Assembly: GCA_037144045.1 (NCBI GenBank)
Contig: JBAWXN010000001.1
Location: 66,487 to 130,486 of the forward strand
Direction of reading: 5' to 3'
Length of the DNA: 64,000 nucleotides
Source: a bacterium
GTDB taxonomy: Bacteria; Patescibacteriota; Minisyncoccia; Phycocordibacterales; UBA1006
Both the position numbers and the translations under genes were made by a program. The notes beneath the pieces were generated by a model. It made no database searches, was not told the DNA's origin, and saw only the letters and a list, made by a program, of their open reading frames with translations. Within the stretch, counting starts at the first letter, position 1; every line of letters begins with the position of its first letter. Positions 648 to 4,455 of the stretch are shown here, in pieces.

Positions 648-672
648 AAATCCCATTCGGGATTTTTATTGT
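646..672. terminator. bidirectional rho-independent terminator between convergent genes
   Basis: Hairpin aaaaatcccattcgggattttt lies between the stop of 33..647 (+) and the stop of 666.. (-). Confidence 0.7.
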
Positions 673-2341
673 GCCTTTTTCTTGAGTGCTTTCAAGTATT
701 CGTAAGTAGTAATACCTTGGTCATGGATTGCTTTCGCGTGATCGATTCCGACGTAACGCCAATGCCATGATTCTGGAATATATCCTGTAATAGATTCGGT
801 TCCTGTTTTATAACTTTGAATAAATCCATATTTGTACGCATTGGTTACGAGCCATGCGTATTCAGTCGAATTTTTGAAGTTGTCGTATGAAAATGCGGGA
901 TCGCTTCCTGATTTCATATCAAGCGCAGTACCGAGTTGGTGTTCAGAACGTCCTGGTTTCGCTACTGATGGATATTTAGTCGGGTCATTCGCCGCTTCGA
1001 GAGTCGTAGTACTTGAATCATGAATAGTTTCCTGGGTATTGCGACTGCGGAATCCTGACGTCATGATAATTTTAAGTCCTGCATCTGACATGTCTTGTTC
1101 CATAGTAATTAATGCATTTGCAGCGGTTTCGGTAAGGCAAGATGCTGTAGTTTGTACATTAATGCGGTTATTTAAGGGAATGAGGTCTTTAGGAATGTAG
1201 TTTCCAATATCCATATCGGGTCCTACGGGTTCAAGCCATTTATTAATGGTTGCATCTTTGGCTGCGGGGCAGGTTTGTGCGGTGACAACTCCTTTTTTAA
1301 GGAAGTCTGCATCGGTGGCATCGCGAATTTCCTTAGGTTGATATTTATTTCCGGTTTTATCAAGTTCTATAATTTTAAGAGAAGTAGATTTAATGGAATG
1401 TTTTTCAATGACTGCATCAACAAGGAGTCCTTGCATCGTCGCATCTGAGAAATACTGGTCAAAGATGAAATTTCCTAATGAGTATGCAATAAATTTATCC
1501 TTGTAATACTCAGTTTCTTGAACCACATGGGGATGGTGGCCAATAACCATATCAGCTCCTGCATCAATCGCAGTATAGGCAAGCGTTTTTTGTCGTGTTG
1601 TTTTTGGATTATATTCTACACCCCAGTGTGCAGAAAAAACTAGGAAGTCTACTGATTCTCGAGCTTGCGATATATAGGTGGCAAGGCTTGGATCGCTACA
1701 CAGAATTTGTCCTGCTGCGGTATCAGTTGCTTTGAGCCAGTCTGGTCCTACATCACTACACCCAATAAATCCGATAATAAGCCCATTTGCGGTAAATGTT
1801 TTAACAGTAGATGCCTCAGCTTTATTTTTTCCAGCCCCTGCATAGGGAATATTGTTTCTATCTAAATTTGCAAGAGTTGAAATAAATCCAGTGTTACTGC
1901 GATCACCTACGTGATTATTCGCAAACGAAACCATTTTAATATTATTGTCTGCGAGTGCGGGTAAAATTTTTTCGTCCATGGCAAATGAAAAGCGGCTTCC
2001 CACGTTTGGTCCTTGGGTGGTTACGGGGCCTTCAAGGTTCAGAAATACACCATCGGCTTGTTTGAATAAGGGGAGATGTTCAAATAATCGCCCGAAGTCA
2101 CCACTGAGGTTGTTTTTTACAGAATTTTCAACACCACGGTCCACCATGAGGTCGCCGACAAATATAATGCGCGCACTAGGGTTTGTCACAGGAACAATGG
2201 TTGGAATGATTTGAGTTATTTTTTCTGGTAATGACTGAGTGTCCGATTTTTTATGAGAATACCAAGCAAGTCCAAAACCTACTGCAGATCCGATGATGAT
2301 ACAGGTAACGAAAAAAGCGATGATGTGGCGGTGGGATTTCA
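666..2341 (-). CDS. fusion protein: CapA/PgsA-like metallophosphoesterase N-domain plus VanY/peptidase M15 D-Ala-D-Ala carboxypeptidase C-domain
   Basis: An N-terminal TM helix is followed by CapA-like motifs (HWGVEY, GHHPHVVQ). The C-terminal part has M15B/VanY motifs (SGFRS, SEHQLGTALD). The ORF track extends to 2429, but the likely start is the internal Met (MKSHRH..) at 2341; the longer form would overlap rnr by 47 nt. Confidence 0.6.
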
Positions 2342-2382
2342 TAGCCGCATTGTAGCAGAAACTAACCAAAGAAAAAACTGCC

Positions 2383-4455
2383 CTAAGCAGTTTTTTCTTT
2401 GACTTGATCAGGTACGAGTACGTAATCAATAATTCGTTTTTCTAGGTTAGTGTCTTTTACTTTGATAGTAATGCGTTGCCCGAAATGGAATTCTTGTTTT
2501 GAGTTTTTACCTACAATGCAATTTCGTTTTTCATCGAATGCATAGAAATCATTTCCGAGGTCCATGAGACGAATCATACCTTCTGATTTTGACTCTGCTT
2601 CAGCTACATAAACACCGAATTTCCCAACGCCAGTGACAATACCACCAAATGTTTTGCCAATGCGTTCGGTCATGTACTCTACTTGTTTGTATTTAATAGA
2701 TTCACGTTCTGCTTCTTGAGCGTCTTTTTCACGATCAGAAGAAAATGCACACATGCGGACATATTCAGCAGCTTCCTTAGTTTCTACTTTTTCACCATCA
2801 AGCGTAAGTTGTAACAATCGATGTACCATCACGTCAGGATAGCGACGAATAGGGGACGTGAAATGGGTGTAGTAATCAAACGCAAGTCCGAAGTGTCCAA
2901 TGTTTTCTGTTGAATAAATCGCTTTGGCCATTGATCGAACAATTGATGACTGAATGGTGTCACGCGCATCGTCGGTTCCAGCCTCATCAATAATCCTTTG
3001 GAGGACATGAGGAGGAATAATTCCGTCTTTGACGGGGATATTGGTGTACCCAATTGATTTTAAGAATGTTACCAGGTCTTCAACACGTTCAGGAGACGGT
3101 TTATCGTGAACACGATACACGGCCAATCCCGCAGCGTCTTTTTCTGAAAGTTTCTTGGCGACATACTTGTTAGCAAGGAGCATCCATTCTTCAATCATAC
3201 GCATCGTATCAATACGCTTCTTGATCATGACACGAATTGGTTTTCCATTTTCATCGAGGATAAAGCGTACTTCATCAGTATCCATAGACAATGCACCATC
3301 TTTGAATCGTTCCTCAGTATAGATTTTTGAGAATCTCATGAGTTCTGCAAGTTCAGTGTAGAAAATACCTTCTTTGGTATCGATAATTTCCTGAGCTTCT
3401 TCGTAGGTGAATCGTTTATCAGATTTAATAATCGTTCGTCCGAACCAGGTAGTCATTACTTTTCCGGTTTCTTTATTGATAGTGAAGATACTTGAAAAGG
3501 CGAGCTTGTCTTCGTCTTGGCGAATAGAACAGAGTTCATTTGAAAGTACTTCAGGAAGCATAGGAATCACACGATCAACAAGGTAAACAGACGTGGTACG
3601 TTCTTTAGCTTCATCATCAAGTGCTGAACCTTTGGTTACGTAGAACGATACATCAGCGATGTGTACTCCGATTTCATAGTTACCATCGGGAAGGGTTTGA
3701 AATGAGAGTGCGTCGTCGAAGTCTTTCGCGTCTACGGGGTCGATGGTGAATGTAGTTACACCGCGCATGTCGCGACGTTTAGAAATTTCGTCAGCAGGAA
3801 TTCCAGTCCCGTGTAATTTCTCAGCTTCTTCAGTTACTCGTTCTGGGAATGCACCATCAAAACCTTTTTCAAGGACAATAGCATTCATTTCGGTATCGTT
3901 TTCACCAGGAGTCCCAATAACTTGAGTTACTTCACATAATGGGGTATCACCAATCCATGTTCCAAGTTTTACCAATACTTTTTTCTTGAGGTTGTTTTTT
4001 GCAAGATCGGTTACGGGCGCTACACGCATTTCCGGTTCTCGAGAGTCACTGGAAATAAACCAAATATCATTTGCACGCTGTTCGATAATTCCTGCGTAGG
4101 CATTTTTACTACGTTTAATAAGTTCAGTTACTTGTCCGGTTCCTTGTTTTTTATCAAGTATTTTAATTGTCACACGATCTCCGTTTAACGCGTGGAGGTT
4201 GTGCTGGGGTTGTACCATTACGGCAAATCCTGAATCCTTATGGGTAACGTATCCAATACCATTTTTACCAATTTTAAAAATACCTTCGAATGTTTCAGGA
4301 ACGTCTCCGGTTACGGCTGTGTTATCTACGGGACGAGGACCTGCTGCAGGACGTCGTGCGAGTGAATCATTTTTTTTATGGGTTTGAAATACGCGCTGGC
4401 CTTGAGAGGGGTAGTCTTTCTTGTATCCGTTATCTGGGTTATTGTTGCTTGTCAT
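2383..4455 (-). CDS. rnr: ribonuclease R (RNB-family 3'-5' exoribonuclease with C-terminal S1 domain)
   Basis: RNB catalytic motif HFGLAFDYYTHFTSPIRRYPD. N-terminal cold-shock/OB region. C-terminal S1-like domain. Length 690 aa. Confidence 0.85.
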   Translation of the reverse strand: MTSNNNPDNGYKKDYPSQGQRVFQTHKKNDSLARRPAAGPRPVDNTAVTGDVPETFEGIFKIGKNGIGYVTHKDSGFAVMVQPQHNLHALNGDRVTIKILDKKQGTGQVTELIKRSKNAYAGIIEQRANDIWFISSDSREPEMRVAPVTDLAKNNLKKKVLVKLGTWIGDTPLCEVTQVIGTPGENDTEMNAIVLEKGFDGAFPERVTEEAEKLHGTGIPADEISKRRDMRGVTTFTIDPVDAKDFDDALSFQTLPDGNYEIGVHIADVSFYVTKGSALDDEAKERTTSVYLVDRVIPMLPEVLSNELCSIRQDEDKLAFSSIFTINKETGKVMTTWFGRTIIKSDKRFTYEEAQEIIDTKEGIFYTELAELMRFSKIYTEERFKDGALSMDTDEVRFILDENGKPIRVMIKKRIDTMRMIEEWMLLANKYVAKKLSEKDAAGLAVYRVHDKPSPERVEDLVTFLKSIGYTNIPVKDGIIPPHVLQRIIDEAGTDDARDTIQSSIVRSMAKAIYSTENIGHFGLAFDYYTHFTSPIRRYPDVMVHRLLQLTLDGEKVETKEAAEYVRMCAFSSDREKDAQEAERESIKYKQVEYMTERIGKTFGGIVTGVGKFGVYVAEAESKSEGMIRLMDLGNDFYAFDEKRNCIVGKNSKQEFHFGQRITIKVKDTNLEKRIIDYVLVPDQVKEKTA

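Follow-up and report, generated by a model that had tools for sequence, protein, structure and literature searches.

We analysed a 64,000-nucleotide stretch of bacterial DNA (assembly GCA_037144045.1, contig JBAWXN010000001.1, positions 66,487 to 130,486), hereafter called the window, and focused on a minus-strand gene near its beginning. This gene, at positions 666 to 2342, is a single gene encoding a genuine fusion of a CapA-type domain and a VanY-type carboxypeptidase domain. It follows rnr on the same strand. The features of the locus are listed below, in which residue numbers refer to a 558-amino-acid (aa) form of the protein; the Pfam ranges are shifted by +29 in the numbering of a longer, 587-aa form.

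666..2342, minus strand: coding sequence of the CapA-VanY fusion, 558 aa, from ATG 2342-2340 to the TAA stop at 666-668 (list of open reading frames and codon check)
2343..2429, minus strand: in-frame upstream extension from TTG 2429, probably untranslated; it covers the rnr 3' end at 2383-2429
2262..2327, minus strand: single N-terminal transmembrane helix, aa 6-27, HIIAFFVTCIIIGSAVGFGLAW; mean Kyte-Doolittle hydropathy 2.45
1455..2168, minus strand: PGA_cap/CapA-type domain of calcineurin fold, aa 59-296 (88-325 in the 587-aa form; Pfam)
1308..1454, minus strand: beta-strand extension of the CapA-type module, aa 297-345; AlphaFold2 strands 304-341
669..1283, minus strand: M15B VanY/LdcB-type zinc carboxypeptidase module, aa 354-558
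747-1136, minus strand: Pfam VanY core, aa 403-532 (432-561 in the 587-aa form)
2383..4455, minus strand: rnr, RNase R/II-type, with RNB, CSD2 and S1 domains (Pfam)
2364..2404, minus strand: terminator-like hairpin and T-rich tail, 19 pairs; its loop contains the rnr stop TAG 2385-2383
639..674: perfect 16-bp hairpin (GCACAATAAAAATCCC/GGGATTTTTATTGTGC) extending over the stop codon at the 3' end of the CapA-VanY gene

The open reading frame (ORF) 666..2429 described in an earlier note on this DNA is present on the minus strand, encodes 587 aa, and begins at TTG (ORF list). In an alignment of 22 homologues, nearly all N-termini start at a Met matching ATG 2342-2340, immediately before the membrane helix; a few gene calls carry an N-terminal extension, which is non-conserved. 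An identical 558-aa protein, encoded on a contig of 274 kb, is recorded at NCBI (MEI8223564.1, 'MAG: CapA family protein [bacterium]'), and the NCBI protein collection has no entry for the 587-aa form. Within the 2343..2429 extension lie the rnr stop codon and the terminator-like hairpin (2404..2364); the hairpin sits between rnr and the CapA-VanY gene, upstream of ATG 2342. Based on the homologue N-termini, the 558-aa NCBI record, and the hairpin at the rnr stop, the start was assigned to ATG 2342 and the long start at TTG 2429 was rejected. The internal Met proposed in the note to remove the overlap with rnr is thus a real and supported start abutting the transmembrane helix, although it lies at 2342-2340 rather than at 2341. 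The overlap of the longest ORF with rnr was given its right size, 47 nt (2383-2429). However, as the upstream gene is the minus-strand rnr at 2383..4455, the overlap falls on the 3' (stop-codon) end of rnr and not on its start.

A consensus scan identified no promoter for the start at 2342, and no -35 element passed. By eye, a TACAAT hexamer (2354-2349, minus strand) ends 6 nt before ATG 2342, and no Shine-Dalgarno sequence was seen before this ATG. The CapA-VanY transcript may be leaderless or nearly so. At the other end of the gene, the perfect hairpin at 639..674 is probably a bidirectional terminator common to the CapA-VanY gene and the convergent ORF 33..647 (204 aa), which has no Pfam match.

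Pfam search found PGA_cap (PF09587) and VanY (PF02557) in one ORF, as the note had claimed, and the two motifs quoted there were located at 1044-1058 (SGFRS) and 918-947 (SEHQLGTALD). Homologues were searched among 5.8 billion proteins, and at least 5,160 of the 8,000 candidates scored were significant relatives. Domain architectures were counted by domain probing over 265 proteins, consisting of the 120 best 90%-identity clusters and 145 new 50%-identity representatives. The fusion is kept in relatives: the colinear CAP-VAN order (CAP, PGA_cap module; VAN, VanY module) was found in 107 of the 120 best clusters, and the remaining 13 are mostly longer fusions that include CAP-VAN. An alignment of 64 sequences (42-92% identity) was colinear across the domain junction, and C358, P384, L387, and C402 in the inter-domain region were invariant in it. 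The AlphaFold2 model built from this alignment had a mean predicted local distance difference test score (pLDDT) of 91.5 and a predicted template modelling score (pTM) of 0.71, without a low-confidence break at the junction. The concern that a frameshift had joined two genes at the domain junction is refuted by more than 100 independent assemblies with a single ORF, the invariant junction residues, and the confident model.

The architecture, which had not been recognised as standard in the note, is common and syntenic in Patescibacteria, and the exact protein already carries the NCBI name given above. Homologues are named automatically in the databases as 'CapA family protein' or 'LAS superfamily LD-carboxypeptidase LdcB', and their organism names include Candidatus Pacebacteria/Paceibacterota, Nomurabacteria, Wolfebacteria, and 'Patescibacteria group'. 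Our literature searches found no paper describing the CapA-VanY architecture or the wider association of PGA_cap with peptidoglycan enzymes, and no experimental characterisation of the related multi-domain wall enzymes described below.

The N-terminal module matched PGA_cap over model positions 2-255 of 255, with an E value of 3e-66 (224 bits; gathering cut-off, 27). The motifs GDLM, NLE, NNHxGD, HWGxEY, GHHPH, and GNFxFDQ were invariant in the 64 homologues. Bacillus anthracis CapA encoded on pXO2 is 28% identical to this domain, and all of its shared motif residues are invariant here. The nearest solved structure, both by sequence and by fold, was MslH (8GQ9; Foldseek E value, 6e-22), followed in Foldseek by YmdB-type phosphatases and 5'-nucleotidases. 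The alignment with MslH extended over approximately 410 columns and reached past the Pfam domain.

MslH is an epimerase with a single Ca(II) that acts on the C-terminal Trp of a lasso-peptide precursor (PMC10406935). Its dyads are H88/D91 and H295/D11, and its Ca ligands are E44, N87, H259, and H261 (PMC10406935). Based on the alignment, seven of these eight residues (D11, E44, N87, H88, D91, H259, and H295) correspond to invariant residues of the window protein (D64, E104, N143, H144, D147, H239, and H272, respectively). The PGA_cap module is thus predicted to be a catalytically intact metal-dependent domain in which the metal-binding and acid-base residues are present.

The term phosphoesterase, used for this module in the note, holds at the level of superfamily and fold. 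Motifs III-V of the metallophosphoesterases are present and the fold is calcineurin-like, but the canonical D-x-H of motif I is D64-L-M66 and the GD of motif II is N-L-E104. As D-x-H is replaced by D-L-M, and the sole solved relative MslH is a single-metal peptide epimerase, we regard the term as a fold label only. The authors of the MslH study proposed that CapA is a poly-gamma-glutamate epimerase (PMC8179263). In our literature searches, we found no later paper testing this proposal and no direct biochemistry of PgsA.

The C-terminal module matched VanY with an E value of 6.8e-32 (110.5 bits; gathering cut-off, 25). The best match among PDB sequences was B. subtilis LdcB/YodJ (4OX3; 8e-26), aligned over aa 380-555, followed by B. 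anthracis LdcB (4MPH and 4JID) and then by VanY(B), VanXY, and pneumococcal LdcB/DacB. Foldseek ranked the matches of the module in the same order. In Streptococcus pneumoniae LdcB, the zinc ligands are H153, D160, and H207, and E204, the carboxylate-binding R120, S151, and the mobile W206 were also described (Hoyland et al., PMC4087270). The LdcB residues R120, S151, H153, D160, E204, W206, and H207 correspond to R432, S466, H468, D475, E524, W526, and H527 of the window protein, all of which are invariant. The zinc site of the LAS type (H-x6-D...H), the catalytic Glu, and the Arg responsible for binding the substrate carboxylate are therefore all present and invariant. Judged from these residues, the module is an intact M15B carboxypeptidase. 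Since stand-alone homologues of approximately 290 aa match from about aa 354 onward, the segment with Cys358 and Cys402 belongs to this module, and the two invariant cysteines in its N-terminal extension possibly form a disulfide.

The note had called the module a D,D-carboxypeptidase. It is a carboxypeptidase of the VanY family, but its nearest characterised relatives by sequence and fold are the LdcB L,D-carboxypeptidases, and LdcB is the best-scoring named family for it, albeit below threshold in NCBIfam. The NCBIfam model of VanXY gave 85 bits against a cut-off of 250, and the VanY models NF000473 and NF000472 gave 78 against 400 (VanY-B/G) and 59 against 425 bits. Two observations favour L,D specificity: LdcB is the nearest relative, and in many homologues an S11 D,D-carboxypeptidase is part of the polypeptide as well, so that a second D,D-activity would be redundant. 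The most likely reaction, as predicted from these comparisons, is thus of the L,D type (tetrapeptide to tripeptide).

The membrane anchor proposed in the note was supported by hydropathy and by AlphaFold2. The segment of aa 6-27 is the sole strongly hydrophobic segment of the 558-aa protein, and in the model residues 4-31 are helical and residues 33-44 form a disordered linker or tether. Judging from the conserved cysteine pair and from where the LdcB, PgsA, and S11 homologues are located, the helix would be a signal anchor and the remaining protein would be extracytoplasmic, in a type-II topology.

We examined which domains are joined to PGA_cap in Patescibacteria. Counts below are those among the 145 new representatives unless stated. 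Loci from GTDB (n = 80), retrieved by CapA-domain patterns, were used for architectures and context, not for frequency or taxonomic limits. The architectures S11-CAP-VAN, S11-VAN-CAP, S11-CAP-CAP-VAN, S11-CAP, YkuD-S11-CAP, and CAP-M23 were verified with Pfam.

CAP alone: 92
YkuD-S11-CAP: 15
S11-CAP: 14
CAP-VAN: 5
S11-CAP-CAP-VAN: 3
S11-CAP-VAN: 2, plus 9 among the top 120 clusters
CAP-CAP: 2
VAN-CAP: 2
S11-VAN-CAP: 1, plus 2 among the top 120 clusters
S11-CAP-CAP: 1
M23-CAP: 1 (blastp probe only)

Among the GTDB loci listed, CAP-M23 (L023, 597 aa) and Memo-CAP (L034), which has an N-terminal Memo-like domain, were also seen. All four partner types (S11, M15B, YkuD, and M23) have the peptide moiety of peptidoglycan as their target. 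The order of domains in the giant wall proteins is permuted between lineages (L005, 109-2787; P0121, P0130, and P0131; L007; L023), and the differing orders indicate repeated, independent fusion events. The recurrence of PGA_cap fusions constitutes Rosetta-stone evidence for a role in peptidoglycan. The giant wall proteins of Patescibacteria include S11-VanY-PGA_cap of 875 aa, S11-PGA_cap-PGA_cap-VanY of approximately 1,180 aa, and YkuD-S11-PGA_cap of approximately 780 aa. Three further loci (L028, L035, and L037) join PGA_cap to a conserved C-terminal region of approximately 260 aa, which has no Pfam match in L028.

A split form was found in a metagenome-assembled genome of Candidatus Nomurabacteria (L014, 5106-7958), in which a capA-like gene (5929-7005) and a vanY-like gene (7002-7958) overlap by 4 nt. 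A separate N-terminal membrane helix is encoded by each of them, and the pair directly follows a polysaccharide deacetylase-like gene, which was recognised by eye from its TIDDGP motif.

The gene neighbourhood was kept in relatives at 64%, 45%, and 43% identity. At each of these levels, rpsP and rnr are divergently oriented, the CapA-VanY gene comes after rnr, and smc and rnc lie downstream of it in convergent orientation. One Nomurabacteria lineage additionally has a polysaccharide deacetylase gene as an insertion immediately upstream of the CapA-VanY gene. As the neighbourhood is kept at 43-64% identity, the gene looks like a core gene passed on by vertical inheritance. Among the window ORFs surveyed with Pfam were also alr, mreB, mreC, glmS, YceG/MltG, and PdaC-like genes, and because of alr, mreB, mreC, glmS, and YceG/MltG the organism appears to make peptidoglycan. 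The alanine racemase gene (4878-5993, plus strand) lies 2.5 kb from the CapA-VanY gene, beyond rnr and rpsP; this proximity may be a coincidence or a link to D-Ala handling.

We searched for the partner genes of known CapA and VanY proteins. Using pXO2 CapB, CapC, and CapD as tblastn queries, no match to capB, capC, or capD was found in the 64-kb window or in 85 other loci, and the positive control worked, as only the B. anthracis locus (L086), which has the full capBCADE operon, matched. Among window ORFs of 120 aa or longer, Pfam identified no genes for poly-gamma-glutamate synthesis, and vanH, vanA, vanX, vanR, and vanS were likewise absent from the Pfam survey of the window.

The reading of the gene as one for cell-envelope remodelling, made in the note, is supported in general by both domain assignments and by the anchor. 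We propose more specifically that the product is probably an extracytoplasmic enzyme with two activities that processes peptidoglycan stem peptides and belongs to the conserved housekeeping wall maturation of Patescibacteria, probably those of the Paceibacteria/Parcubacteria group, and that it is neither a capsule synthase nor a glycopeptide-resistance protein. In this proposal, the N-terminal helix would tether the protein at the outer face of the membrane, and the M15B module would trim the C-terminal D-Ala from stem peptides. The same stem peptide would also be the substrate of the PGA_cap module, and the most plausible target in it would be a residue whose alpha-carboxylate is free, possibly the gamma-linked D-Glu or the C-terminal residue newly exposed by the carboxypeptidase. 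The reaction might be C-alpha epimerisation, by analogy with MslH, or alternatively hydrolysis. The C-terminal Trp of MslA, all residues of poly-gamma-glutamate, and the iso-Glu or C-terminus of the stem peptide would have in common that they are N-acylated and carry a free alpha-carboxylate, which could bind the metal in the PGA_cap site. By this analogy, PGA_cap may tentatively be viewed as an unrecognised extracytoplasmic peptidoglycan-editing activity, whose substrates would be N-acylated residues in which the alpha-carboxylate is free, and which would be either gamma-D-glutamyl-directed or a metal-dependent C-alpha epimerase; we consider this specific chemistry possible, and considerably less assured than the general role in stem-peptide processing.

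Several points weigh against this proposal. The fourth Ca ligand of MslH, H261, falls on G241 of the window protein (HWGxE versus HSHE), and the NCBIfam MslH model (NF038314) gave 61.7 bits against a cut-off of 700. In our literature searches, no PGA_cap domain was found to have a biochemical activity connected with peptidoglycan. The fusions and the synteny are evidence that the functions are coupled, but do not identify the substrate. The NCBIfam LdcB model (NF041194) gave 90 bits, below its cut-off of 275, so that L,D specificity is only a probable assignment. With K2 and R5 on one side of the anchor and KK on the other, the positive-inside rule gives an ambiguous answer. The search for cap genes covered the window and the 85 loci, and capB or capC could be located elsewhere in the genomes.

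We weighed the proposed role in wall maturation against other explanations. The protein might be directed at the wall of another organism, with an epibiont of the Candidate Phyla Radiation (CPR) trimming or harvesting peptides and D-Ala from the cell to which it is attached. Patescibacteria reportedly live as epibionts or parasites and strongly express extracellular enzymes that bind cell walls (PMC10936435), the window has other large secreted-looking proteins, one of them with a peptidoglycan-binding domain, and alr is only 2.5 kb distant. However, essentially all homologues have an uncleaved N-terminal helix as a tether, the gene keeps a fixed position among housekeeping genes at 43-64% identity, the LdcB and S11 homologues are housekeeping maturation enzymes, and archaea, which have no peptidoglycan, are among the reported hosts of Paceibacteria; we thus regard a host- or prey-directed function as unlikely. 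Somewhat less likely still is a true metallophosphoesterase, acting on the phosphodiesters of wall polymers, lipid-linked pyrophosphates, or nucleotides and fused to VanY merely through their shared location at the outer face. The calcineurin-like fold, the phosphatases and nucleotidases that follow MslH in Foldseek, and one CAP-CAP homologue that also touches Pfam Metallophos agree with such an activity, but D-L-M and N-L-E replace motifs I and II, as in MslH, which has a single metal and is not a phosphoesterase, and all fusion partners target peptides rather than phosphates.

A role like that of CapA/PgsA, in which the protein makes, exports, or anchors a poly-gamma-glutamate-like polymer and the VanY module prepares its attachment sites on the wall, would account for the common Pfam family and for the conserved motifs, every one of which is shared with pXO2 CapA at 28% identity. 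As capB, capC, and capD were not found in the window and the 85 loci while the pXO2 control matched its capBCADE operon, a capsule synthase was rejected, and we consider a capsule role of any kind improbable. An accessory protein of glycopeptide resistance is what surveys of the CPR resistome would count here, since the Pfam VanY match is clear and a survey of CPR genomes lists vanY-like hits; with VanY scores far below the NCBIfam thresholds, a window without van genes, and housekeeping synteny, vancomycin resistance was rejected as very improbable. The chance that a sequencing or assembly frameshift joined neighbouring genes is negligible. The split capA/vanY arrangement in Nomurabacteria shows that such neighbours exist, but both split genes have a membrane helix whereas the fused form has no helix at the junction, and the conservation of the colinear single ORF led us to reject this explanation.

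Other features of the window were recorded. The window resembles a CPR genome in having housekeeping genes at approximately 40% G+C and a 16S rRNA gene without a 23S gene behind it. This complete bacterial 16S rRNA gene (35266-36835, plus strand; 1359 bits) lies by itself between glmS (33062-34903) and a sugar-transferase gene (37078-38448), and no 23S or 5S gene was found in the 64-kb window; rRNA genes unlinked in this way would fit a CPR genome. Two large adjacent ORFs are located at 6488-8254 and 8294-10621 on the plus strand. One of them has a marginal C-terminal sorting domain of the type IX secretion system (T9SS) type (27.2 bits; cut-off, 27), and the other, of 775 aa, has a C-terminal PG_binding_1 domain, carries no further domain assignment, and resembles highly expressed extracellular proteins of Paceibacteria (PMC10936435). 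An ORF of 798 aa (57629-60025, plus strand) contains Peptidase_S74, an endosialidase intramolecular chaperone, at aa 577-632. This domain is typical of phage tail-fibre or spike-like proteins, and the ORF lies in a chromosomal context. The ORF 46722-47795 (plus strand) has an unusual small architecture of sigma-70 region 4 and HARE-HTH domains and is distinct from a full-length rpoD-like gene (20886-22148).

CapA/PgsA is genetically required for poly-gamma-glutamate capsules. To our knowledge, no reaction has been assigned to it, the peptide epimerase MslH is its sole biochemically defined relative, and almost nothing is known of the envelope biology of Patescibacteria. The PGA_cap domains described here form a large, vertically conserved group that has no cap partners at the loci searched. 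Joined repeatedly and in varied orders to LdcB/VanY, S11, YkuD, and M23, they provide a testable hypothesis of a stem-peptide substrate for the family and point to an uncharacterised step of cell-wall maturation in Patescibacteria. If the proposed chemistry is true, the fusions of these bacteria would reveal the catalytic role of the whole CapA/PgsA family together with a new maturation step of the wall. In metagenome surveys, such proteins should be counted neither as capsule-synthesis genes nor as vanY resistance genes. The gene itself is ordinary for Patescibacteria, and what makes it useful is the lead that it gives to how the CapA family functions.

We compared the window protein with known systems. 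The C-terminal module has the H-x6-D...H site, Glu, Arg, and S-E-H motif of LdcB (YodJ/DacB; MEROPS M15B; 4OX3, 4MPH, and 4OX5), which is likewise membrane-anchored and extracytoplasmic. Unlike LdcB, the window protein has approximately 350 extra residues that form a second, putatively catalytic domain, and its VanY module has the conserved Cys358-Cys402 pair in the N-terminal extension. With VanY and VanXY of the van operons it shares Pfam family and fold, but it scores far below their thresholds, lacks a van operon, and lies in housekeeping synteny.

CapA/PgsA of the pXO2 capBCADE operon is similarly composed of an N-terminal membrane anchor followed by PGA_cap, and its motifs GDxM, NxE, NNHxxD, HWGxEY, GHHPH, and GNFxFDQ are all found in the window domain. 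The window domain differs in being only 28% identical and joined to a peptidoglycan peptidase, without capB, capC, or capD partners at the loci searched and with capE absent. MslH belongs to the same PGA_cap family, and both of its His/Asp dyads and three of its four Ca ligands align with invariant residues; in contrast to MslH, with which its domain shares 18% identity, the window protein is membrane-anchored and predicted to be extracytoplasmic, and has no lasso-peptide gene cluster. Other wall enzymes of Patescibacteria carry the same PGA_cap subfamily, approximately 40-50% identical to the window domain. Both these proteins and the window protein combine PGA_cap with enzymes of the stem peptide, and the window protein represents the minimal CAP-VAN form.

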